Below, one piece after another: positions 9,719-63,686 of a stretch of DNA of 64,000 bases. Positions within the stretch are counted from its first letter, which is position 1. Each line of letters starts with the position of its first letter. The stretch comes from an uncultured Gammaproteobacteria bacterium. GTDB lineage: Bacteria > Patescibacteriota > Patescibacteriia > Magasanikbacterales > UBA922. The position numbers were made by a program, and so were the translations under genes. The DNA is taken from the NCBI GenBank assembly GCA_964394405.1, contig CAYMVY010000002.1, positions 92 to 64,091 on the forward strand, given 5' to 3'. The notes beneath the pieces were generated by a model, which worked only from the letters and a program-made list of their open reading frames with translations, was not told the origin of the DNA and did not search any database.

Positions 9719-9878
9719 CACTAATGCGATAGGATGAGGTTTGAGGTTAGTATTTTGGATTTTAATTATCGGCTCTGGTGAACAACCTTGATCCGACCCC
9801 TTTTCATTCTAAAGATTACAAGATGTAAGAATGAAGATTGGAATTTTCTTTTTACTTTTTACTTTTGACTTTACTATT

Positions 9879-14324: not shown

Positions 14325-14455
14325 TCGTTCTTTTGTGAAAAATTAGGGGTTGCCCTACCGGAGTGAAATAATCTTCGGTACGGCATCTACAAAAAAGCCT
14401 TTATTTTAAGGGCTTTTTTGTTTTACAAAAGCCTATTGGTTTGATAGGATTACCC
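14323..14455. repeat. Right copy of the ~110-bp direct repeat flanking ORF 13773..14324
   Basis: gtcgttcttttgtg...taccgg..cggta palindrome...acggcatctacaaaaaagcctttattttaagggcttttttgtttta...tattggtttgataggattac. Confidence 0.7.
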
Positions 14456-14488
14456 TGTATATGCGTTATACTCTATAACTTATTTTTT

Positions 14489-15553
14489 ATGTTAGATTCA
14501 CTTACTCAAATTAAAAAAATTGATACTGAAAACATGCTCGGCAGTTTGCAACTACTCCATACACAAGTAGCAGAAGTTGCTCAGAATGCAGAGGGTTTGA
14601 CTATCCCTTCAGCGTATAAAAAAATTGACCGAATAGTAGTTTTTGGCATGGGTGGATCTGCTCTTGGTGGGCATATTATTCAATCCTTATATCGAAAAGA
14701 ATTGAAATACCCACTTGAGATTGTGAATGGGTATGAAGTGCCTGGGTATGTGAATGCAAAAACATTGGTTATTTTATCCAGCTATTCTGGCACGACTGAA
14801 GAAGTATTATTTGTAGCTGAACTTGTGCGGGCACGAAAAGCAAAGATTGTGGTAATCAGTGCGGGCGGTGATTTGGCACAGTTTGCACAGAAACACAAAT
14901 ATCCGGCTTTGATTTTTTCAACTGAGAATAATCCCTGTGGATCTCCACGTATGGGTCTCGGATATTCAATCATTGGACAGTTGATTCTTCTTTCAAAATT
15001 TGGTGTTGTAAAAATTTCATCAAAACAAATTCAAAACATTATTAAGGTGCTTGCCGAGTATGACACACTCTATGGTGTTCTTACTCCAGAAAAAGAAAAT
15101 TTTGCAAAGCAATTGGGGAGAAAGACGATTGATCGAAGTGTATGGTATGTGGGAAGTGAACATCTACTTGGGAGCGCACATACCGCAGCAAATCAGATGA
15201 ATGAGAATGGAAAACGTATGAGCGGATATTTTGCATTACCTGAACTCAACCATCATTTGATGGAAGGTATGATGTATCCGAAGACAAATAAGAATACGTT
15301 ACTTTTTGTCCTGATTGAATCATCCTTGTATTATGCTCGCGTGCAGAAGCGATACGAAGTAACGAGAAAGGTGTTGGAAAAGAATCATATTGCACATACA
15401 TTGTATCGTGTAAAAGAAACTGATGCGTTATTGCAGGCATGCGAATGTTTGGTATTTTTCAGTTATGTGAGTTATTACTCAGGACTCTTGAAAAAGATTG
15501 ATCCGACTGCGATTCCGTTTGTGGATTATTTTAAGCGTGAACTGTCAAAATAG
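14489..15553 (+). CDS. Bifunctional phosphoglucose/phosphomannose isomerase (SIS domain, PGI/PMI family)
   Basis: Tandem SIS-domain signatures: IVVFGMGGSALGG and a second VWYVGSEHLLGSAHTAANQMNENGK. Archaeal-type PGI/PMI architecture. Internal ATG 14489. Confidence 0.7.
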   Translation: MLDSLTQIKKIDTENMLGSLQLLHTQVAEVAQNAEGLTIPSAYKKIDRIVVFGMGGSALGGHIIQSLYRKELKYPLEIVNGYEVPGYVNAKTLVILSSYSGTTEEVLFVAELVRARKAKIVVISAGGDLAQFAQKHKYPALIFSTENNPCGSPRMGLGYSIIGQLILLSKFGVVKISSKQIQNIIKVLAEYDTLYGVLTPEKENFAKQLGRKTIDRSVWYVGSEHLLGSAHTAANQMNENGKRMSGYFALPELNHHLMEGMMYPKTNKNTLLFVLIESSLYYARVQKRYEVTRKVLEKNHIAHTLYRVKETDALLQACECLVFFSYVSYYSGLLKKIDPTAIPFVDYFKRELSK

Positions 15554-15632
15554 AACACGGATGACACGGGTCTAACGGATTTTATTGCATTATCCGTGAT
15601 AACCCGTGTTACCCGTTCAATCCGCGTTCTAT
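15551..15632. repeat. Array of ~9-bp units (AACACGGAT / ACCCGTGTT types) arranged convergently, between the PMI and GT2 genes
   Basis: aacacggat gacacgggt ctaacggatt | atccgtgat aacccgtgtt acccgttca atccgcgttc. A homologous array with opposite arrangement lies at 31869-31958. Confidence 0.65.
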
Positions 15633-15643
15633 TAATTAAGATT

Positions 15644-16501
15644 ATGCGAGTATCTGTTATTACGGTGACCTGGAATAGTAAGGAGTTTATTTTCAACCAA
15701 ATTGAATCTGTTAAGCGTGCGGCACAGAATATTCAGATTGAGCAGATTGTAGTTGATAATGCATCGACTGATGGGACTGTCGAGGTAATACAAGAGAGAT
15801 TTTCTGATGTTATAGTGATTGCAAATAAAGAAAATAAAGGATTCGGTGCAGCGAATAATCAGGGTGTGGAGATTTCGAAAGGGGAGTATGTATTGTTTCT
15901 CAATCCTGACATGAAGTTGGAACCAGGATCACTCGATATATTTGTTGATTGGATGGATACAAATCCAAAGGTTGGTATTGCGAGTCCAAAATTGGTTGAT
16001 GAGCAAGGTGTACTTAATTTGAACACAACTCCCCGTCGATTCCCACGAGTGTGGGAACAGATTGCGTTGATTGTTAAATTACCCCACCTTTTCCCCTCAT
16101 TTCTTGACGGGTATCGAATGAAGGGGTTTGATAGTACTAGAGAACAAGAGGTGGATTCGGTACAGGGTTCGTGCATGCTGGTACGAAGAGAATTGATTGA
16201 AAAATTGGGGTATGCCTTCGATCTTCGATATTTTATCTGGTATGAGGATGTCGATCTTTGTAGGGAGGCATATCGGCTGGGATACGTGGTTATGTATACG
16301 CCGGTCATTAGTGCGGTTGATTATAGTGGGCAGAGTTTTAAAAAACGGACGACTTTGTGGAAACAAAAACAATTTACTCGATCCATGCTTGTTTATTTTC
16401 AAAAATGGGAACCATGGTGGAAGTGGGTATGGATCGCAGTATTTAGACCAGTAGGAATTGGGATCGTCTGGATAGGGGAAAAAGTAAAAAGTAAAAAGTA
16501 A
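15644..16501 (+). CDS. Glycosyltransferase family 2
   Basis: MRVSVITVTWNS...DNASTDGT...NKGFGAANNQG...YVLFLNPD is the GT-A DxD-type fold. Confidence 0.85.
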   Translation: MRVSVITVTWNSKEFIFNQIESVKRAAQNIQIEQIVVDNASTDGTVEVIQERFSDVIVIANKENKGFGAANNQGVEISKGEYVLFLNPDMKLEPGSLDIFVDWMDTNPKVGIASPKLVDEQGVLNLNTTPRRFPRVWEQIALIVKLPHLFPSFLDGYRMKGFDSTREQEVDSVQGSCMLVRRELIEKLGYAFDLRYFIWYEDVDLCREAYRLGYVVMYTPVISAVDYSGQSFKKRTTLWKQKQFTRSMLVYFQKWEPWWKWVWIAVFRPVGIGIVWIGEKVKSKK

Positions 16502-16515
16502 AAAATATTTTTTAT

Positions 16516-23397: not shown

Positions 23398-23522
23398 ATT
23401 TTTAACGCAAAACTCAAATGTCAAAACGAAAAACTATAACTAAAAATTTAAAACTAACATACGATGTATAAAGTTTTAGATTTGAGTTATAGTTTTGAAC
23501 TTTGAGTTTTCAGTTTTGACTC
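23398..23522. repeat. ~125-bp palindromic dispersed element (AAACTCAAA / TTTGAGTTATAGTTT family), copy 1
   Basis: The left arm aaaactcaaatgtcaaaacgaaaaactataact mirrors the right arm agttatagttttgaactttgagttttcagttttg. Related copies lie at 33298-33402, 56599-56696 and 60096-60155. Confidence 0.7.
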
Positions 23523-24810: not shown

Positions 24811-25164
24811 ATGCTTCATATTTCAGGAATTGTAGTTGAGGGAGAGAAGCGAGGGCGCGTCTTGGGATTTCCTACTGCGAATCTTGAGTTTAAGAAGCGT
24901 CTACATATCAGCCCAGGTATCTATGCCGGGTGGGTGATTGTGGGAAAGAAGAAGTACCTGGCAGGTCTCTATATTCCAGAGCCTATGAATCGAGTTGAAG
25001 CGCATGTGCTCGATTATACCGGTGAGTCACTGTATGGGGTGTTTATTGAAGTTGAAGCAGTACAGAAAGTGAGTGAGATCGAGAAGCATGATTCTGATGA
25101 GGAATTAGTTAAGAAAATTAAGAGTGATATTGAGATGGTGAGGGAGGTGTTGGGGAAGTCATAA
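24811..25164 (+). CDS. Riboflavin kinase domain protein (RibF C-terminal-like)
   Basis: GEKRGRVLGFPTANL motif. Internal ATG at 24811 chosen, because the tracked start overlaps ctpA. Confidence 0.7.
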   Translation: MLHISGIVVEGEKRGRVLGFPTANLEFKKRLHISPGIYAGWVIVGKKKYLAGLYIPEPMNRVEAHVLDYTGESLYGVFIEVEAVQKVSEIEKHDSDEELVKKIKSDIEMVREVLGKS

Positions 25165-25191
25165 AGTCCATAAAGTCGAAAGTCAGAAAGT

Positions 25192-31862: not shown

Positions 31863-31868
31863 AATTGT

Positions 31869-31958
31869 ATTACCCGTGTATACCCGTGTTAATCCGTACA
31901 ACCCGCGTTCCATTCAATAGAACACGGATGACACGGATTAAACGGATTGGGGCGGATT
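31869..31958. repeat. Second array of ~9-bp ACCCGTGTT / AACACGGAT units, divergent arrangement, upstream of tsaE
   Basis: tacccgtgta tacccgtgtt aatccgtaca acccgcgttc ... agaacacggat gacacggat taaacggatt ggggcggatt. Homologous to 15551-15632. Confidence 0.65.
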
Positions 31959-33297: not shown

Positions 33298-33402
33298 AAG
33301 CTCAAAACGTAAAACTCAAAGCTTAAAACTGGAACTAAAAACTCAAAATTTTAAGCTTTGAGTTATAGTTTTAAGTTTTGATATTTAAGCTTTGAGTTTT
33401 TT
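33298..33402. repeat. Palindromic AAACTCAAA/TTTGAGTT dispersed element, copy 2 (overlaps the 3' end of the NUDIX gene)
   Basis: ctcaaaacgtaaaactcaaagcttaaaactggaactaaaaactcaaaattttaagctttgagttatagttttaagttttgatatttaagctttgagtttt. Confidence 0.7.
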
Positions 33403-33802
33403 TTAAATACTCCTCAACAACAGCTCTTACATTTGGAGCACAATCTTCCGGTAGATCATTAATATCAAACCAGTTCCATTCAACAATATTTTCACCTGGT
33501 TTTATTTCTCCAATTCGCTTTGCAAGATAGTGGATAAGAATCACTAGTTTTTCTGGATGGTCTGGGCGATGTACGAGCATTGGTTTTAATGGTTGTATGA
33601 TTTCAACTTTAATTCCCATTTCTTCCATTACTTCACGTTTACATGCTTCTTCAAGTGAAATATCAAAAGATTCTACTTCTCCGCCAGGAAAAAGCCAGGT
33701 GGTAATTCGACCATTTTCTTTCTTCTCTTTATTAAGCAAAACTTTGCCATTTTCAATAATGACTGGTCCCGAGGCAATAATTGTTTGATCTGGTAGATAC
33801 AT
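33371..33802 (-). CDS. NUDIX hydrolase
   Basis: Nudix box GGEVESFDISLEEACKREVMEEMG. Confidence 0.8.
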   Translation of the reverse strand: MYLPDQTIIASGPVIIENGKVLLNKEKKENGRITTWLFPGGEVESFDISLEEACKREVMEEMGIKVEIIQPLKPMLVHRPDHPEKLVILIHYLAKRIGEIKPGENIVEWNWFDINDLPEDCAPNVRAVVEEYLKKTQSLNIKT

Positions 33803-34566: not shown

Positions 34567-34654
34567 TCCGTGATCCTCTTGCCAGGAAGACTGTGCTCTG
34601 CACAGTCTTCCTGGCTCCTTCGCCAAATTAAGAGAAGCTCCTAATAGGAGCTTC

Positions 34655-36352
34655 TTATGTTATTTCTTTAATCATGTATGTACCTTCTTTTTTGTAGCCA
34701 AGCTTTTCATAATATCCACGTACACCTACTCCGGAAATCACAGCGAGTTTTTTTACTTTATTTTCTTTGCTAATACGCTCAGCTTCAGCCATTAGTTTTT
34801 TACCGTATCCTTTGTGTTGACTACCGATTGTTTTTGTTTTTCCGATTCCGATCATTTGTCCATATACGTGTAGTTCTCGGATGAAAGCGCTGTTTGTTAG
34901 CTCGGGCATGAGTTTTTTTAAGTTTTCTAAGTTGGCTGAGTTAGCTAAGTTTTCTGAGTGGGGAATGCGTAAACGTAAGAAACCGTAGACGGCGATGCGA
35001 TTTTTGTCTTCCATTGAAATGAAATATTCTGTTCCGCCAATAGTTTCATATGTGTCAACAAAAATTTGTGGTTCTTCGTTTTCATTAATATTATCTTTTT
35101 GTCGATAAATTTCTCGGCAACGCAGACATTCGCAATGCTTTCCTTCTTTCTTTAATTGATATTCAAGCATCTCGCGCAAGTTGGTAATGATATTTCCATT
35201 CTCAATTTCTGTTGCAGGGATATCGCGAATGAGTCGAGAAATGCGGCAATAGCGGGGAGTCGCGAGTTTCATTTCGAGCAATGCCTTGAATAATCCTTCA
35301 TCGCCATACGATTTATATCGTCCATCAAGAAACCACTGATACAGCTCTGCGGATTTAATAACCGTGTTTGGATAAATTTTGATCATGTCTGGGCGAAGGC
35401 CTGGATCCATGAATATTTCTTTGTACATTTCTACATCATGCTCAGGGCTACTCCCTGGTAAATCAGGCATGAAATGCAAATCTACTTTGAAACCCGCTTC
35501 GCGAAGTAGGTAGATTGCCTCGCGGAATTGTTGTACTGTATGTCCGCGTTTGATTAATTCAAGAATTTTATTGTCTGTTGCCTGCAGACCTAATTCAATT
35601 CGGGTACAACCCTGAAGGCGCATATGGTGAATCGTTTTTCCCGAAATTGCGTCTGGTCGAGTCTCAAGTGTGAGACCAATAATACGATGTCCAGTAGATT
35701 CATTAATCGTTTGCTCTTTATCAAGAGCTTCCTGTAATTCAGTAAGAGGTCTATCATTCCAATATTCCTCACTGGTTGGACCAATTGGAACTTCACGGCT
35801 GAAATCATTGCATGCTTTGAATGATTCGAGAATGAACCAGTATTGATATTTAAGCGGATATGCATTCCATGTCCCACCTTTTAAAATATACTCAATTTTG
35901 TCAGTAGGGTGACCATTCACCTCAAGCATTTCGATGCGTCTCTTCATCTGTTCGTATGGGCTAAAATCAAGCCGTAGTGCTCGTGCTGCGGCGGGTTCGG
36001 TTGCAATATAGCTTTTGGGCATGCGGAGCTCAGTAGGGCAGTATACGCATTTTCCGGGGCAGGTATAGGGCTTTACCAATGAGGTTATAATTACTACTCC
36101 AGAAAGGGTACGTACATTTGCTTTGCGAAGAAAAAATTCCATTTGTTCGTCTGGTTCTACACTTTTCTTTTCGAGTAGACTCTGGTAGGCTATGAGCAGT
36201 TGTTGGTTTGCAGGTTGTTTGATTTTTAATTTCGAAGCGCCAAGTCTTTTTGCATCATCAAAATCCTCTTTGGTTTGAGGCTTGTATGCGACGATATATT
36301 CCATTAATTTTTCTGCTATTTCATTCATACGTATGTCGAAAGTTGACTTCAT
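34655..36352 (-). CDS. Elp3-like radical SAM / GNAT acetyltransferase (bacterial Elp3 homologue)
   Basis: Radical-SAM CxxxCxxC (CPGKCVYC). C-terminal GNAT (GYGKKLMAEAERI). 565 aa. It contains an in-frame 9-bp tandem insertion (ENLANSANLENL). Confidence 0.75.
   Translation of the reverse strand: MKSTFDIRMNEIAEKLMEYIVAYKPQTKEDFDDAKRLGASKLKIKQPANQQLLIAYQSLLEKKSVEPDEQMEFFLRKANVRTLSGVVIITSLVKPYTCPGKCVYCPTELRMPKSYIATEPAAARALRLDFSPYEQMKRRIEMLEVNGHPTDKIEYILKGGTWNAYPLKYQYWFILESFKACNDFSREVPIGPTSEEYWNDRPLTELQEALDKEQTINESTGHRIIGLTLETRPDAISGKTIHHMRLQGCTRIELGLQATDNKILELIKRGHTVQQFREAIYLLREAGFKVDLHFMPDLPGSSPEHDVEMYKEIFMDPGLRPDMIKIYPNTVIKSAELYQWFLDGRYKSYGDEGLFKALLEMKLATPRYCRISRLIRDIPATEIENGNIITNLREMLEYQLKKEGKHCECLRCREIYRQKDNINENEEPQIFVDTYETIGGTEYFISMEDKNRIAVYGFLRLRIPHSENLANSANLENLKKLMPELTNSAFIRELHVYGQMIGIGKTKTIGSQHKGYGKKLMAEAERISKENKVKKLAVISGVGVRGYYEKLGYKKEGTYMIKEIT
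34919..34958. repeat. 9-bp tandem units (RAGTTNKCT x4) within the Elp3-like coding region
   Basis: aagttttct aagttggct gagttagct aagttttct gagt, translated in frame as ...ENLANSANLENL.... Confidence 0.6.
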
Positions 36353-37850: not shown

Positions 37851-37856
37851 CACGTT

Positions 37857-37943
37857 CTTCCCCCTTTCCCAAGGGGGAAGACAGAAGGGGGTATAAGCCT
37901 ATTCTACCCCACCCTGTCCCTCCCCTTGAGAAAGGGGAGGGAA
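37857..37943. repeat. Two adjacent GC-rich hairpins (CTTCCCCCTT..AAGGGGGAAG and GTCCCTCCCCTT..AGGGGAGGGAAC) between convergent genes; member of the CCCTCCCCT/AGGGGAGGG repeat family
   Basis: The same caccctg..ccctcccct-loop-aggggaggg core is found at 493-522 and 8053-8084. Confidence 0.7.
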
Positions 37944-37951
37944 CGCACTGA

Positions 37952-39679: not shown

Positions 39680-41056
39680 TTATCTACTTAGTTTACTCAC
39701 CAGCTCTTCGATCATACCACGAAACCCATGGCTACCGAGGAAGACGACAGAATCTCCAGGCTGAGCTTCTTCTATAATTGTCTGAATGAGTATGTGATCA
39801 TCATCAATATATTGTGTATGTGAATGTGTTTTTGTAATGATTTGAGCCAAGCCTTCGCCATCAAATGGTTTGTCTGCGTCTTTGTCAGTTTTGATGATTG
39901 TGAGACGGGGGATGATGACTATATCTGCGTCGGTAAATGCATGTGCATATCCTTCAGTTGCGCTTGGCTGCCTATTTCCAGTGTTTGGTTCAAAAATTGC
40001 AATTACTTTGCCTGCGGTGATTTTTTTCACGGTTGCGAGAGCTGACGATGCTTTGGTGGGGGAATGAGCAATATCATCAATAACAGTAACGTCACCTTCG
40101 TAGCGTTTTTCCATACGACGTTTGAGTCCTTGGTGAGCAGTGATTGAAGCGATAATTGATTCAGGTTCAATTCCAATCGTGTGGGCGAGCGCAAAACAGC
40201 CACTAATATTTTCTGCCTGATATTCACTTACGAAGGGAGTTTTGATCTGAAATGTTTTTTTGTCATGAGTAATCGTGAAAGTCATTCCATTCTTATCGCT
40301 TACAATATTAGAATACATGTAGTCATTGTGTTCACTTAGTCCATAGGTCACCACTTTGCATTCACTGTATTCTCTGTATTGTTCCGCACGTTCTGAAAGT
40401 ACGAGAAGTCCATCTTTCGGAAGAGAGCGTACGAGTGTCTCAAATGTATCAAAATATTTTTGTTCTGTTGGGTAAATATCTGCATGGTCCCATTCGACTG
40501 CGGTTAGGAGCAAGTGTGTTGGATTGTAGTGCGCAAATTTGGGGCTATTGTCCCAACGTGCGGTTTTGTATTCATCACCTTCGAGCACACTCCAGCCACT
40601 TTTTCCAATCTGTGCAGATGGAGTTTCATCTATACTTAGGCCACCAAACATATAGCTGGGGTCGTACTCTGCATCAGTAAGAATTTGAGCCATGAGCGCT
40701 GAAGAGCTGGTTTTTCCATAGGTCCCTGCACAGACAATTGAATTTTTCTTGAGGAAAAATTTTTCAATCAGTTCCGGATAAGAAACATAGGGAATGTTGT
40801 TTTCCTGTACACATATCCATTCTGGATTGGTAGAAGATGCGACGTTCCCAACAACTACGAGATCAGGATTTCCATTTGCGCACATTTTTTGTGGGTGCCA
40901 ACCTGGATAATAAGGGACGCCATTATCTTTCAGATATGTTGAAATAGGAGGAAAAAATCCTTTGTCACTGCCAGTCACATCGTGTCCAGCTTTTTTGAGG
41001 GCGAGTGCGAGACCTCCCATGGCTACGCCGCAGATTCCGATAAAGTGGATTTTCAT
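39680..41056 (-). CDS. Mur ligase family protein (MurC/Mpl-like UDP-N-acetylmuramate--amino acid ligase)
   Basis: N-terminal IHFIGICGVAMGGLALAL, P-loop GTYGKTSSSAL, 458 aa. Confidence 0.75.
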   Translation of the reverse strand: MKIHFIGICGVAMGGLALALKKAGHDVTGSDKGFFPPISTYLKDNGVPYYPGWHPQKMCANGNPDLVVVGNVASSTNPEWICVQENNIPYVSYPELIEKFFLKKNSIVCAGTYGKTSSSALMAQILTDAEYDPSYMFGGLSIDETPSAQIGKSGWSVLEGDEYKTARWDNSPKFAHYNPTHLLLTAVEWDHADIYPTEQKYFDTFETLVRSLPKDGLLVLSERAEQYREYSECKVVTYGLSEHNDYMYSNIVSDKNGMTFTITHDKKTFQIKTPFVSEYQAENISGCFALAHTIGIEPESIIASITAHQGLKRRMEKRYEGDVTVIDDIAHSPTKASSALATVKKITAGKVIAIFEPNTGNRQPSATEGYAHAFTDADIVIIPRLTIIKTDKDADKPFDGEGLAQIITKTHSHTQYIDDDHILIQTIIEEAQPGDSVVFLGSHGFRGMIEELVSKLSR

Positions 41057-41089
41057 AAAGTCAAAAGTAAAAACGCAAAAGTAAAAAGA

Positions 41090-53616: not shown

Positions 53617-55665
53617 ATGAGCTATAGAAATAAAGACATTCGATCGAAAATTAAGTGGGGGATTGCAGGTATATTAGTGTTATTAGTTGTATCAAGCGGT
53701 TTTGTGTATCCACAACCACTCAATGCAGTAATTTCACGGCTTAATTCTGTTGCTAAATTAGGGCTTCCTCAGATTCCTGAAACCCCATTCCAGCTCGGAT
53801 TGGATTTGCAGGGTGGAGCTCATTTGGTATATGAAGCAGATATGAGTGCGATTCCTGAGACTAACCGTGCAGATGCTCTTGAGGGTGTGCGTGATGTGAT
53901 TGAGCGTCGTGTGGGAGGAATCGGAGTTTCTGAACCACAAGTACAGACAGGTAAAGTCGGCGATTCATATCGATTGAGTGTTGATTTGCCAGGAATTGGA
54001 AATGTTGAAGATGCAATTAAACTTATTGGTCAGACACCTATTTTGGAATTTAAAGAAGAAAATAAAGAAGCTCCTCGTGATCTCACTAAGGATGAAGAGG
54101 AGTTCATGAAGACATATAATGCTGAGGCAAAGAAAAAAGCTGAAGATATTTTGAAACGTCTCAAGAAAAAGGAAGTGTTCGAAGATCTTGCAAAAGAACT
54201 TTCAGAAGATGAGCAGAGTAAAAATAATGGAGGATATCTGTCATATGTGAATTTGAAAAACATGTATGCGGAGATTTATGACTGGGCAGCAAGTTCGACT
54301 GAAGGGTCGATATCATCACGTGTTATAGAAGCTCCAGATGGATATAATATTTTGAAACGCGGTAAAGAGCGTGATGGTGGAAAAGAAGCGCTTGCAAGTC
54401 ATATTTTGATTTGTTATTTGGGTGCAGTGAATTGTGACGCTCCGATGTTTAACAAAGATGAAGCGCGCGCAAAAGCACAGGAAATTTATGACAAAGCTAC
54501 TGGTGATAATTTTGCGACACTTGCTGAAGAGAATTCAACTGATCCTACCGTGTCCCTCAATCAGGGTGATTTGGGTTGGGTTCCTACTGGTATTATGGTC
54601 CCCGAATTTGAGAACGCTTTGTTCGGATCTGAGAAAGGTCAGATTATTGGCCCAGTCGAAACTCAGTTTGGTTTTCATATTATTTACAAGAAAGATGAAC
54701 GGGTTTCAAAAGAATATGAAGTATCTCGCATCTTGATTAAAACTCATACCAAAGAAGATCTCGTCCCTCCGGTAGATCAGTGGAAAGAGACGGGATTGTC
54801 AGGAAAACAATTGGCTCGTGCAGAGGTAGTCACTGATCAGCAGACTGGTGCGGTACAAGTTGCTCTTAATTTCAACGAAGAGGGTACCAAATTGTTTGCT
54901 GAAATCACTGAGCGCAATCTTAATAAGACTGTTGCTATATTTCTCGATGGCGAAGTAATCAGCGCTCCGACAGTACAGGCAGTCATCCGTGATGGAAAAG
55001 CTGTTATTACTGGTGCTGGAAATATACAGGAGGCGCGTCTTTTGACACAGCGCTTGAATGCGGGAGCGCTTCCAGTTCCTGTTGAGCTTGCAAGCCAGCA
55101 GAAAGTGGGTGCGACATTGGGTGCAGAATCAGTTGCAATGAGTGTAAAAGCAGGAGTCGTGGGTGTGATTATCATTATGTTATTCATGATTCTCTATTAT
55201 CGCCTGCCAGGATTTCTTTCAGTTATCTCATTATCACTCTATATTGTTGTGACTCTCTCTATTTTCAAACTGATCGGTGTCACGCTTACTCTTGCGGGTA
55301 TCGCAGGATTTATTCTGTCGATTGGAATGGCGGTTGATACCAATATTCTCATTTTTGAACGTTTGAAAGAGGAGTTGCAAAGAGGAAAAAGTCTCAAAGT
55401 TGCGGTTGAAGAAGGATTCAAACGAGCATGGACTTCGATTCGAGATGGTAATGTCTCAACGCTTATTACTTGCGTACTTTTGATTTGGCTCGGCACAAGC
55501 TTTGTAAAAGGCTTTGCAGTAGCGCTTATCATTGGTGTATTGGTAAGTCTGTTTAGTGCGATTACTGCAACTCGTGTAATGCTCCGATTTGTGGTGCCTT
55601 GGTTTACCAAACGCGATGGTGGAAAGTTATTCCTCGGCAGTGGCCATTCTACTGAACAAAAATAA
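53617..55665 (+). CDS. secD: Protein translocase subunit SecD with an inserted PpiC-type (parvulin) PPIase domain
   Basis: SecD N-terminal TM and P1 domain, C-terminal 6-TM core. A central ~100-aa segment ASHILICY...GDLGWVPTGIMVPEFENALF...IGPVETQFGFHIIYKKDE matches the parvulin signature. Confidence 0.8.
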   Translation: MSYRNKDIRSKIKWGIAGILVLLVVSSGFVYPQPLNAVISRLNSVAKLGLPQIPETPFQLGLDLQGGAHLVYEADMSAIPETNRADALEGVRDVIERRVGGIGVSEPQVQTGKVGDSYRLSVDLPGIGNVEDAIKLIGQTPILEFKEENKEAPRDLTKDEEEFMKTYNAEAKKKAEDILKRLKKKEVFEDLAKELSEDEQSKNNGGYLSYVNLKNMYAEIYDWAASSTEGSISSRVIEAPDGYNILKRGKERDGGKEALASHILICYLGAVNCDAPMFNKDEARAKAQEIYDKATGDNFATLAEENSTDPTVSLNQGDLGWVPTGIMVPEFENALFGSEKGQIIGPVETQFGFHIIYKKDERVSKEYEVSRILIKTHTKEDLVPPVDQWKETGLSGKQLARAEVVTDQQTGAVQVALNFNEEGTKLFAEITERNLNKTVAIFLDGEVISAPTVQAVIRDGKAVITGAGNIQEARLLTQRLNAGALPVPVELASQQKVGATLGAESVAMSVKAGVVGVIIIMLFMILYYRLPGFLSVISLSLYIVVTLSIFKLIGVTLTLAGIAGFILSIGMAVDTNILIFERLKEELQRGKSLKVAVEEGFKRAWTSIRDGNVSTLITCVLLIWLGTSFVKGFAVALIIGVLVSLFSAITATRVMLRFVVPWFTKRDGGKLFLGSGHSTEQK

Positions 55666-55670
55666 TACCT

Positions 55671-56600
55671 ATGAATATTTCCTTTGTTTCAAAACGAAAT
55701 TATTTCTTCTTGATCTCGATTGTATTTGTTGCGGTGAGTATCGTAAGTCTCATTATGTATGGTCTCAAACCAGGGATTGATTTTACGGGTGGCACCTTGG
55801 TTGAGTTGAAATTTACTCATGAGAGGCCAACTCTTTCAGAGATACAAGAAATTGTTCCTGAGTCGACCTATGGATCAAGTATTATCCAGTCTGTTGGAGA
55901 CATGGGATATCTGTTGCGTCTACGCTTTATCTCGGAAGAAGAACATCAGCAGATTCTTGCGAGTGCTCGGGAAAAATTTGAAGTAGCGGGAACAAGTGAA
56001 ACTCCTGAGAATCGAGTTCTTGAGGAAAGTATTGAGACTATCGGTCCTGCAATCAGTGAATCTCTGAGAGAGCGATCGGTCCAGGCGGTGATTGCGGTTT
56101 TACTTACGATTGGTGCCTATATCGCGTATACCTTCAGAAAAGTTTCACGTCCAGTCGCTTCGTGGAAATACGGACTTGCTGCTATTATCGCACTTTTCCA
56201 TAATATACTTATTACGATTGGTGTTTTTTCTCTTTTGGGACATTTTCATGGCGTAGAAGTCGGTATTTCGTTTGTACTCGCACTTCTCACGATTCTTGGT
56301 TTTTCGGTACACGATACTATTGTGGTGTTTGACCGTATTCGAGAAAACCTGAATCGATATGGGGCAAATGAGTTTGAGTCATTGGTCGATCGAGCGCTTA
56401 ATGAGACTTTTGTCCGTTCGATTAATACTTCGATTACGGTATTGATTGTATTATTCTCACTTTTTGTATTCGGAGGAGAATCAATCAGATACTTCGTACT
56501 TGCGCTGATTGTGGGCATCTTCTTTGGAACATATTCTTCGATTTTTATTGCGTCACCACTTTTGGTGGTTTCACATCGGTTGTCACGGAAGAGAGCGTAA
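55671..56600 (+). CDS. secF: Protein translocase subunit SecF
   Basis: LKPGIDFTGGT.., a 6-TM core, and its position after secD. Confidence 0.9.
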   Translation: MNISFVSKRNYFFLISIVFVAVSIVSLIMYGLKPGIDFTGGTLVELKFTHERPTLSEIQEIVPESTYGSSIIQSVGDMGYLLRLRFISEEEHQQILASAREKFEVAGTSETPENRVLEESIETIGPAISESLRERSVQAVIAVLLTIGAYIAYTFRKVSRPVASWKYGLAAIIALFHNILITIGVFSLLGHFHGVEVGISFVLALLTILGFSVHDTIVVFDRIRENLNRYGANEFESLVDRALNETFVRSINTSITVLIVLFSLFVFGGESIRYFVLALIVGIFFGTYSSIFIASPLLVVSHRLSRKRA

Positions 56601-56696
56601 CTCAAAACGTAAAGTTTAAAGCTTAAAACTATAACTCAAATCTCAAAGGTTTGAGTTTTTAGTTTCAGTTTTGCGTTTTGACATTTGAGTTTTGAA
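56599..56696. repeat. Palindromic AAACTCAAA/TTTGAGTT dispersed element, copy 3
   Basis: taactcaaaacgtaaagtttaaagcttaaaactataactcaaatctcaaaggtttgagtttttagtttcagttttgcgttttgacatttgagttttg. Confidence 0.7.
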
Positions 56697-56733
56697 TTTT
56701 CTATGCTATACTTTTCCTATAACTATTCTTCAT

Positions 56734-60052: not shown

Positions 60053-60080
60053 AAAAAACACCCGCATTAAGGTGTTTTTT
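60053..60080. terminator. Terminator hairpin ACACC-CGCATTAA-GGTGT + T-run
   Basis: aaaaaacacccgcattaaggtgtttttt. Confidence 0.6.
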
Positions 60081-60095
60081 AATTTTAGCTGATTA

Positions 60096-60155
60096 TTTTT
60101 AGTTTTAAGCTTTAAGTTTCAGTTTTGAATTTTGCGTTTTTAGTTTTGAACTATA
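60096..60155. repeat. Half copy of the AAACTCAAA/TTTGAGTT element family (copy 4)
   Basis: agttttaagctttaagtttcagttttgaattttgcgtttttagttttgaactata. Its reverse complement contains aaagcttaaaact and aaaacgcaaaa, as in copies 1-3. Confidence 0.6.
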
Positions 60156-60641
60156 AAATCGTACTGCTTCAATTCCTCCGACCAATACTCCCGTATAGAA
60201 GAAATCACTCAATAAACTATTTCGGAAGAAGGGGAGAGCGAGGTAGTAGCTTTCCATAAGTCCGGCAATAGTTCGTGGGTAGAGCGCGCCAAATGCCCAG
60301 ACCATGGTATTAGTGACGAAGTAGAATAGGATCGAGCTTGCCAGGGTAATTCCAATTATTGTCCCAACATTTTTGTGCTTTTTTGCCCAGGTACCAAAAT
60401 AGGTTGTGGCAAGCAAACATCCGTATACTGATACCATGACTAGTGGATGGTAGAAGCCAATGAATAGATCGCTTACGAGCATTGCAGTCATTGGCACGAT
60501 ATATGCCAGTTTGCGGGGTAGATATAGCCCTCCTACGAGTGCTAGGGCGGTAATTGGTACAAAGTTTGGGCTATGCGGCATAAGGCGTGCTAGGACCCCG
60601 TATGCTGCCAAAGCGATGACTAGGATAAGGTATTTTTTCAT
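60105..60641 (-). CDS. Small polytopic membrane protein
   Basis: 178 aa, 5-6 TM helices. Immediately downstream of the surface-protein pair. Resembles the sizes and topology of ECF-transporter S components. Confidence 0.4.
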   Translation of the reverse strand: MKKYLILVIALAAYGVLARLMPHSPNFVPITALALVGGLYLPRKLAYIVPMTAMLVSDLFIGFYHPLVMVSVYGCLLATTYFGTWAKKHKNVGTIIGITLASSILFYFVTNTMVWAFGALYPRTIAGLMESYYLALPFFRNSLLSDFFYTGVLVGGIEAVRFYSSKLKTQNSKLKLKA

Positions 60642-63418: not shown

Positions 63419-63686
63419 AGATACTTGTAGACAAAAAAATTCCCCTGAGCTGAGGAATGTCTATGTTGGTACATGGCGGTATCAAAAAATACCTATGTAC
63501 TGGTTCCTGCTCGGGATAACACACATTCTACAAGATCGGACTTTTACCGTTGCGGCACAGTCAGGGAATTACACCCTGGTTCCAGTAGAATAGGTTTTTG
63601 TTGTAAATAACAGGTAAATTGTATCAGGTATGTGCCTGATGTCAAACAGTCATAACTGTTGTTAAAAAAGGGATTTTTTGATATCC

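Follow-up and report, generated by a model that had tools for sequence, protein, structure and literature searches.

The window analyzed here is a 64,000-nt stretch of contig CAYMVY010000002.1, from a bacterium of the candidate phyla radiation (CPR) placed in the Magasanikbacterales, and it contains a dispersed family of AT-rich palindromic elements at four loci. These four loci are probably miniature derivatives, without an open reading frame (ORF), of a small selfish cassette that encodes a four-helix-bundle protein (PF05635/TIGR02436) and resembles the intervening sequences (IVSs) of 23S rRNA genes. Membership of the loci in one family, their homology to the cassettes, their insertion polymorphism, their potential to form hairpins and their consequences for coding could each be observed directly, and a role of the four-helix-bundle protein in mobility is a conjecture. 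The find is best described by what it adds: IVSs with an S23p ORF and heptamer repeats were described earlier, and ORF-less IVS-like cassettes at CPR gene boundaries are added here.

Four loci hold copies of one palindromic family

A preliminary description, made from the window's letters, had listed a dispersed family of imperfect palindromes at four loci, and elements are present at all four (Table 1). Together they comprise seven homologous arms of ~50 nt, six of which form three inverted pairs while the seventh stands alone. About seven degenerate heptamers, CTCAAAA or TTTTGAG depending on the strand read, make up each arm in a fixed register. Tandem Repeats Finder reported period-7 arrays at every one of the four loci with unit matches of 66-73%, and the units are therefore degenerate. 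All seven arms could be aligned without gaps in a single seven-unit register, in which unit 3 is a hexamer (TTATAG or TTGTAG). Copies 1 and 2 were recovered by a repeat search of the window as long imperfect palindromes (arms of 47-65 nt, 74-77% complementary); for copy 3 the search showed only shorter inverted segments, and the palindrome is apparent from its fold and its alignment to copy 1. On the plus strand, copy 1 aligned end to end with the minus strand of copy 3, with 19 extra central bases in copy 1, and the element therefore has a polarity, in which copy 1 is oriented plus and copies 2 and 3 are oriented minus. Its ends display terminal inverted symmetry (AACTCAAA...TTTGAGTT).

Table 1. 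Positions of the palindromic elements, their aligned arms and the protein tails that they encode, in window coordinates
Feature	Position	Strand	Context or basis
Copy 1, full palindromic element	23398..23522	+	Between murA (end 23388) and ctpA (start 23529)
Copy 1, 5' arm, A-rich strand	23403..23455	+	nhmmer; alignment to cassette 5' arms
Copy 1, last-codon relic and 3' arm, T-rich strand	23468..23522	+	ATAAAGTTTTAG = I K F stop
Copy 1, aligned arm	23403-23455	-
Copy 1, aligned arm	23472-23522	+
Copy 2, full palindromic element	33298..33402	-	Between glyA start (33221) and NUDIX gene end
Copy 2, aligned arm	33299-33350	-
Copy 2, aligned arm	33348-33398	+
NUDIX C-terminal tail, element-encoded	33371..33403	-	KKTQSLNIKT and stop codon
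Copy 3, full palindromic element	56597..56700	-	Relic ATG 56682-56684 (- strand)
Copy 3, aligned arm	56598-56648	-
Copy 3, aligned arm	56647-56698	+
Copy 4, single arm, T-rich on + strand	60093..60156	+	Beside conventional terminator hairpin 60054-60085
Copy 4, aligned arm	60101-60153	+
DUF6580 protein C-terminal tail, array-encoded	60105..60155	-	...SSKLKTQNSKLKLKA and stop codon

The similarity between arms is not explained by composition. Pairwise local scores ranged from 33 to 65, compared with 17 ± 3.6 (maximum 35) for shuffled arms. A profile built from the window arms matched just these seven places in the window (nhmmer), and a window-free profile of 108 metagenome arms recovered exactly the seven window arms (E = 7e-10 to 8e-7) and nothing else. 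Copy 4, the single arm, was matched at E = 5e-11 by the window profile and at 1.4e-8 by the metagenome-arm profile. All seven arms were also found (E = 4e-7 to 0.02) by a profile drawn only from the arms of four gene-bearing cassettes, and both window-free profiles had zero matches in 20 locally shuffled windows. AT-rich low complexity, which the preliminary description had named as the explanation that could undo it, is refuted. The palindromes are real copies of one family.

The dispersed family of imperfect palindromes is borne out, as are the occurrence of copies in either orientation and their location between genes or at gene ends. The gene names given at the outset also stand (a MurA-type enzyme, the S41 protease CtpA, the serine hydroxymethyltransferase GlyA, a NUDIX protein and SecF), and a 21-mer of copy 1 described as the reverse complement of one in copy 3 is exact. 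The shared blocks were partly right: AAAGCTTAAAACT occurs in copies 2 and 3 and, reversed, in copy 4, but CTCAAAACGTAAA is found only in copies 2 and 3 and not in copy 4. Rather than a set of blocks, one fixed module of ~50-54 nt made of degenerate heptamers is the better description. Unit number and order are constant across more than 100 arms, with the hexamer at unit 3 conserved. Degenerate units of fixed number and order also rule out a simple-sequence heptamer repeat of the short tandemly repeated repetitive (STRR) kind.

The arms match both ends of a gene-bearing cassette

In a metagenome search, a 25-base degenerate pattern for the arm matched at least 120 contigs, with zero matches in viral contigs. 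When the ORFs of 120 loci were clustered, small Pfam 23S_rRNA_IVP proteins (PF05635; TIGR02436, 'four helix bundle protein', 'S23p') emerged. At L116:8012-8456, an A-rich and a T-rich arm of the window family precisely enclose a PF05635 gene. Homologues of this protein number ~1,900 and carry CPR names wherever the source was named (Magasanikbacteria, Parcubacteria); in the contigs L131, L134 and L135, they are flanked by the same arms as the window family. A full cassette thus reads as a 5' arm of about seven degenerate CTCAAAA heptamers, a four-helix-bundle gene of ~125 codons and an inverted 3' arm of the TTTTGAG type. The 5' arm holds the ATG, which lies inside CTCAAATGTCAAA, and the first ~14 codons of the gene, whose stop codon marks the beginning of the 3' arm (AAGTTTTGA or AAAAAGTTTTGA, each followed by GTTTTAG).

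The window arms align with both ends of these cassettes. In copy 1, CTCAAATGTCAAAAC aligns with the ATG-bearing 5' arm of L135, L116 and L134, whose proteins begin MSNLKTTAQNPKTD, MSNVKTTTKNPKTD and MSKIKTTTQNPKTD, respectively, and a relic start codon (ATG, 23418-23420) opens a relic ORF of 17 codons (MSKRKTITKNLKLTYDV and a stop; 23418-23471). The relic at the other end of copy 1 (AAG TTT TAG) aligns with AATAAAAAGTTTTAA/TGA and the 3' arm of L116, L135, L134 and L131. Copies 1 and 3 both retain the ATG and ~13 codons of a decayed N-terminus (MSKRKT.TKN...), the last codons are retained only in copy 1, and copy 2 has a decayed start, with ATA where ATG is expected. The arms match the cassette ends and the relic codons lie where the gene would begin and end, and therefore the window elements are probably cassettes from which the ORF has been deleted. 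We file them as ORF-less derivatives and not as full members of the IVS-type cassette class. In the history that we propose, the gene would have been deleted from copies 1-3, leaving two arms that abut, and copy 4 would be left with one arm only; the elements would insert at cistron and transcription-unit boundaries and, elsewhere, as single arms in frame inside genes.

Single arms are translated inside housekeeping genes

The metagenome loci held 199 arms, including 32 close pairs and ~135 unpaired arms. Every close pair ran from A-rich to T-rich (32/32; 0 reversed). Single arms were found within long ORFs of housekeeping genes in 32 cases, for example in RNase HII and Fpg (Pfam or PDB search), and further arm-bearing ORFs, recognized by their conserved motifs, encode ValRS, LeuRS, ArgRS, GlyRS, an ELP3-like enzyme and others. 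The A-rich strand is the sense strand in 32/32 of the in-gene arms, and all three frames are used about equally. This orientation bias exists because the T-rich strand carries stops in all three frames, as it does in 96 of 108 arms. An in-gene arm adds ~18 residues, such as NSKLKTQNSKLQLKTKNL, and its conserved block spans ~54 nt; the RNase HII of L050, for instance, has a 15-residue insertion relative to PDB 3o3g. At these metagenome loci, family arms preserve the reading frame inside conserved ORFs. None of the window copies lies inside a gene, and only two C-termini are extended.

The two extended proteins take new C-terminal tails and stop codons from the elements. The NUDIX gene of the window continues for 10 extra codons into copy 2 before its stop; relatives match its product only up to residue 132-140 of 143 (tblastn), and the orthologue in relative L004 terminates in ...EVIKEYK (read from the sequence). 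For the DUF6580 protein, the Pfam match ends at residue 161 of 178 and the 17-residue tail lies outside it, and the orthologue in relative L144 has a different ending, likewise with an array-like tail. At copy 3, the first heptamer overlaps the secF stop codon (56598-56600). No copy (0/4) lies within rRNA; all are between or at the ends of protein-coding genes, and Rfam detected no rRNA in the window. As a practical consequence, the elements add spurious C-terminal tails and inserts of ~18 residues to annotated proteins.

Three further observations concern the arms in metagenomes. In ELP3-like radical SAM genes of L103, L063 and L091, which are diverged orthologues, an arm sits at nearly one position in two reading frames, as though insertion had recurred at a site that is tolerated or preferred. 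L122:25-804 consists over ~780 nt almost wholly of tandem TTTTGAG-type arms, unlike the fixed 7-unit module. At L049, L062, L076, L102, L106, L023 and L125, arms adjoin an abundant repeat (GTCATTCTGAGCGAAGCGAAGAATCC...GGATGACA), forming compound repeat clusters.

The family is insertion-polymorphic

The relatives of CtpA and SecF place the window in a Candidatus Magasanikbacteria (CPR/Patescibacteria) genome. We compared the window with nine related genomes (CtpA identity 71-81%, 170 kb in all). The window family had no significant match in these 170 kb, the one weak match being of 21 nt (E = 0.013), and it is missing from the relatives at all three comparable junctions (3/3). The family is insertion-polymorphic. 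At the murA/ctpA junction (copy 1), seven of the nine relatives have an unrelated spacer of ~10-90 nt (~10-25 nt in four), a short remnant resembling heptamers is left in L006, and L004 has a palindrome of another, CTAATTAAC-type unit. Five relatives are without the element at the glyA/NUDIX junction (copy 2). At the junction of secF and the next gene (copy 3), L146 has an ordinary terminator and then a conserved extended -10 box (TGCTATACT), and L144 has a palindrome of yet another heptamer type. Taken together, most relatives are empty at these junctions or, after secF, have the ordinary terminator, and in three relatives the position is occupied by a palindrome with another repeat unit. Filled and empty sites are too diverged for exact element boundaries to be placed from these comparisons.

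The junction between the gene at 14441-15553 and the GT2 gene provides a further case. Relative L005 has a full cassette here with (NGTAAGT)n arms, and L004 has an ORF-less palindrome whose (NGTAAGT)n arms are like those of L005; in both, the element provides the stop codon of the upstream gene and the ATG of the downstream gene. Five relatives are empty, with the stop codon followed after 4-40 nt by the start codon, and the window itself holds an 85-nt palindrome of a third unit type (15549-15633). This palindrome and another at 31866-31947 make up a second dispersed palindromic family, with units of 9-10 nt (ACACGGATG / ATTACCCGTG).

Mobility and the nature of the partner gene

The elements had initially been read as REP/MITE-like or as structured small RNAs. 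The first of these held in part: the family behaves as a miniature, non-autonomous mobile element, but its full-length partner is the PF05635 cassette and not an insertion sequence with a transposase, and no REP-associated tyrosine transposase (RAYT) was seen among the ORFs of the 120 loci. Like MITEs (miniature inverted-repeat transposable elements) and REPINs (paired forms of the repetitive extragenic palindromic (REP) sequence), it is miniature, hairpin-forming and multicopy and occurs as singlets and inverted doublets.

A classical MITE would be an internally deleted insertion sequence, mobilized in trans by a transposase and flanked by target-site duplications. The small size, terminal inverted repeats, multiple copies in both orientations and presence/absence polymorphism agree with this, and short-read contigs of SRR12404947 that encode identical CtpA and SecF end within copies 1 and 3, the way contigs do at repeats. 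However, the sole full-length relatives found carry a four-helix-bundle gene instead of a transposase, and the ORF clusters of the 120 loci contained no recurrent transposase family. No direct repeats or target-site duplications, which the preliminary description had proposed looking for, were visible at 28 paired elements. Single arms are moreover common (135 unpaired compared with 32 pairs), which a transposase acting on two ends does not explain, and we regard a classical MITE as quite unlikely. Irrespective of how they spread, the elements break CPR short-read assemblies.

A REP or REPIN mobilized by a RAYT (an IS200/IS605-like tyrosine transposase) would account for the population structure. 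REPINs are described as singlets and inverted doublets with long hairpins (PMC3116915), and the window family likewise has singlets, inverted doublets of one fixed relative orientation and long hairpins. Unlike a REP, however, the single arm is not itself a short palindrome, and arms occur in coding sequence. Among 859 ORFs of the 120 loci, ORF clustering brought no recurring RAYT-like family to notice, and the arms are demonstrably part of PF05635 cassettes. This origin is therefore very improbable, and derivation from the four-helix-bundle cassette is preferred.

Two other functions for the cassette protein were considered and rejected. Avd, the accessory protein of diversity-generating retroelements, belongs to the same fold family as the cassette protein, but the protein of the L005 relative scored 54.5 bits on the Avd model, below the cut-off of 80 bits. 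No reverse transcriptase adjoins the cassettes with called genes (L131, L134, L135, L138 and L141), and no template or variable repeats were noted. A role in anti-phage defence found no PADLOC hit.

Folding and likely action on transcripts

On the better-folding strand, the window hairpins are strong, at -32 to -36 kcal/mol with z scores of -3.8 to -8.0 (copy 1, -34.3 kcal/mol, z -6.6; copy 2, minus strand, -36.4 kcal/mol, z -8.0; copy 3, -32.1 kcal/mol). In the full cassettes L135 and L116, the two arms pair with each other in a stem of ~50 bp round the ORF, in the minimum free energy fold and in the centroid fold alike. We found no compensatory covariation between arms: pairing within elements was 65.3% compared with 64.9% between elements (permutation p = 0.33). 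Because within-element pairing is no better than between-element pairing, the hairpin is a property of the family consensus and not a product of compensatory evolution.

These data bear on the second initial suggestion, that of a small-RNA family or cis-regulatory motifs whose RNA structure is under selection. The predicted folds are strong relative to shuffles, but complementarity within elements is not in excess, the elements are not conserved at orthologous positions and they lie in both orientations relative to flanking genes. Rfam had no match at the elements, its sole hit in the window being an AdoCbl-II riboswitch at 63525-63591, and the module serves as coding sequence in all three frames. 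The suggestion did not survive these comparisons and is extremely unlikely.

For ORF-less derivatives of an IVS-like cassette, a different action can be proposed. Once transcribed, the arms would pair into an AU/GU-rich stem of ~45-50 bp, the architecture of 23S rRNA IVSs; host RNase III would cleave this long double-stranded hairpin and so uncouple the flanking cistrons, and the T-rich arm would place stop codons in all three frames. By analogy with IVSs, transcripts across the window elements would be RNase III substrates and the cassettes would ride on host operons; most cassettes are co-oriented with their neighbor genes. Elements at operon boundaries may in this way alter mRNA processing.

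The elements may also act as terminators or insulators, and host-selected bidirectional terminators or insulators at operon boundaries are a distinct explanation for the whole family. The A-rich-then-T-rich polarity is that of bidirectional terminators. Copy 3, after secF, sits where L146 has its canonical terminator, just upstream of the conserved extended -10 box, and a T8 run follows copy 2 on the plus strand. That run, however, is on a strand without an incoming gene, and the stems, at ~50 bp, are AU/GU-rich and almost without G-C, whereas ordinary terminators of this genome contain G+C (for example, 60054-60085 and 34632-34656); a terminator scan picked only a short inner hairpin of copy 3. 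The genes flanking copy 1 are ~10 nt apart in several relatives and so are probably co-transcribed, and the module is translated inside genes. Selection as terminators is unlikely in view of these points.

Finally, the arms could act mainly at the DNA level as binding sites, either as a stack of -35-like boxes (TTGAnn, repeated every 7 nt) or as targets of a repeat-reading protein, for example the pentameric four-helix-bundle protein. TTGA occurs in every heptamer, and each protein subfamily has its own repeat unit. For glyA and for the gene that follows secF, TTGAnn boxes of the -35 type adjoin a conserved -10 box, giving promoter-like pairs (glyA, TTTACG-18-TATAAT; gene after secF, TTGAGT-16-TATACT with TG). 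Such matches, however, are not above shuffles (36 compared with 30 ± 7; 28 compared with 27 ± 4), copy 1 ends 6 nt before the ctpA ATG and leaves no room for a promoter, and co-inheritance equally explains why unit and protein vary together. Binding sites are a rather unlikely explanation. The more specific candidate of Bacteroidetes-type or sigma-70 promoter stacks was rejected, since hexamers at element ends pair with -10 boxes at two copies but at the frequency of shuffles.

Relation to known repeats and cassettes beyond the CPR

ORF-less IVS versions, ~100 nt long and AT-rich, occur in enterobacterial rRNA genes. In the 23S rRNA IVSs of Leptospira, Coxiella, Brucella and Xanthomonas, as in the full-length relatives of the window element, the inverted ends form a stem with a PF05635 ORF in the loop, and those relatives fold with their 5' and 3' arms paired round the ORF. 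In the Coxiella IVS, the terminal inverted repeats pair into a stem that RNase III cleaves; the loop carries an S23p ORF, which is preceded on its 5' side by tandem GACAGAT heptamers. IVSs occur sporadically and are considered selfish (PMC4990558). The window copies differ from IVSs in lying between protein genes, not in helix 25 or 45 of 23S rRNA, and in having lost the ORF, and single arms of their family are translated inside genes.

Dispersed heptamer arrays are a second point of comparison. They are intergenic tandem 7-mers, often beside start codons (PMC4692102; PMC4679880), and include GGGAATC of Xanthomonas, GGGGA(C/T)T and STRR of Nostocales and TAACTGA of Beggiatoaceae. GGGAATC forms 70-75 convergent inverted pairs per Xanthomonas genome, described as G-quadruplex-forming simple repeats (PMC4692102). 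The window family shares the intergenic tandem 7-mers with these arrays; unlike them, it keeps to a fixed register of seven degenerate units, one of them a hexamer, whereas they are described as variable-copy simple repeats, and roles as G-quadruplexes or as binding sites for regulators have been discussed for them. In a term search, neither of the two papers (PMC4692102, PMC4679880) mentioned S23 or intervening sequences, and within the open-access literature searched only the Coxiella IVS paper (PMC4990558) notes heptamers beside an S23p ORF.

Insertion into genes has a parallel in the palindromic elements of Rickettsia, to which the window family has no sequence relation. These short selfish elements, attributed to Ogata et al. 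in 2000, reportedly insert in frame in conserved genes and add a hydrophilic peptide, and the 32 in-frame insertions of the window family's arm at metagenome loci resemble them in this respect. The Rickettsia elements are whole palindromes of 100-150 bp, whereas here a single arm of ~54 nt is inserted, and only in the stop-free orientation.

Arrays around four-helix-bundle genes are found well beyond the window family. In CPR loci, 15 PF05635 genes are flanked by inverted arrays of 7-9-nt units, with a unit of its own for each subfamily. In Xanthomonas, the XCC0516-type gene (PDB 2gsc), located between accB and accC, is flanked by exactly GGGAATC arrays. Clear inverted arrays were present at five of six plasmid cassettes, those of Calothrix (GGGTGTA), Trichormus (GTCAGAA), Picosynechococcus (between cmr2 and cmr3; GGAGATA), Riemerella (AAGGTTC) and Azospirillum (GACAGAG). 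Arrays of this kind, or at least weak traces, accompanied every four-helix-bundle gene whose flanks were read, whether from CPR, cyanobacteria, Bacteroidota, Xanthomonas or Azospirillum, and the layout recurred in all four further bacterial phyla that were sampled. Homologue searches of the family returned about 1,900 and 7,500 homologues. The Picosynechococcus cassette (L150; Picosynechococcus sp. PCC 7003, plasmid NZ_CP016476.1, 126543-126899) lies within a type III-B CRISPR operon, between cas10/cmr2 and cmr3.

On this basis, a wider reading can be put forward tentatively, although as a joint statement it remains doubtful: a PF05635/TIGR02436 gene between inverted arrays of ~7-nt repeats would constitute one widespread, hitherto unrecognized selfish class. 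Under it, 23S rRNA IVSs would be copies that landed in rRNA, and the CPR CTCAAAA palindromes, the Xanthomonas GGGAATC pairs, the Nostocales STRR and possibly Beggiatoaceae TAACTGA would be ORF-less or single-arm derivatives. An Avd-like pentameric protein would recognize its own arrays and help their spread or maintenance, and single arms would be able to colonize housekeeping genes in frame. Extension to the heptamer-repeat families of other phyla, taken alone, is plausible.

Several observations weigh against derivation from a mobile cassette or against its generality. No PF05635 gene is present in the 64-kb window, and no window copy is gene-bearing. A two-armed element does not readily give rise to single arms inside genes, and the paired elements are without visible direct repeats, as noted above. 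Co-inheritance of protein and arm would look the same as mobilization of the arms by the four-helix-bundle protein, and the hairpin may have arisen incidentally and not under selection. At L083 and L068 (2 of 15 metagenome cassettes) only short or weak repeats flank the gene, and the arms of the sixth plasmid cassette, from Nostoc PCC 7120, mismatch each other.

Three puzzles may share one answer here. To our knowledge, the origin and mobility of 23S rRNA IVSs have been unsettled since about 1990, no function is known for the very large 'four helix bundle protein' family and it is unexplained why many bacterial genomes have an excess of heptamer tandem repeats. If array palindromes are indeed cassette relics, these three questions become testable in tractable organisms such as Xanthomonas, with its accBC cassette.

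Other features of the window

Additional repeats were observed in the window. At 2405-2480, between ybaB and the next upstream gene, lies an ORF-less heptamer-array palindrome of AAAAGTN units (A-rich arm, 7-nt loop, T-rich arm), whose unit resembles the cassette arms at L070:3466-3840. Single arrays of AAAGTNA / TNACTTT type occur at 9838-9872, 16479-16504, 25156-25191 and 41057-41088. Two of the single AAAGTNA-type arrays are T-rich in sense and end a few bases from start codons, those of the HIT gene at ~9880 and the gene at 39680-41056 on the minus strand; they recall the Beggiatoaceae TAACTGA repeats located just upstream of start codons. An inverted repeat with 44-nt arms at 37853-37945 is rich in GGGGGAAG / CCCCTT, and its composition is unrelated to that of the AT-rich families.

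The AdoCbl-II (cobalamin) riboswitch at 63525-63591, on the minus strand, scored 44.6 bits, which exceeds the gathering score, and the genes downstream of it have L144 homologues with DUF4430 and, faintly, cobalamin-binding domains. Lastly, SecD (53617-55665) contains an inserted PPIC-type peptidyl-prolyl isomerase domain, seen as two Rotamase stretches and also present in L144 and L146, which is an unusual fusion.

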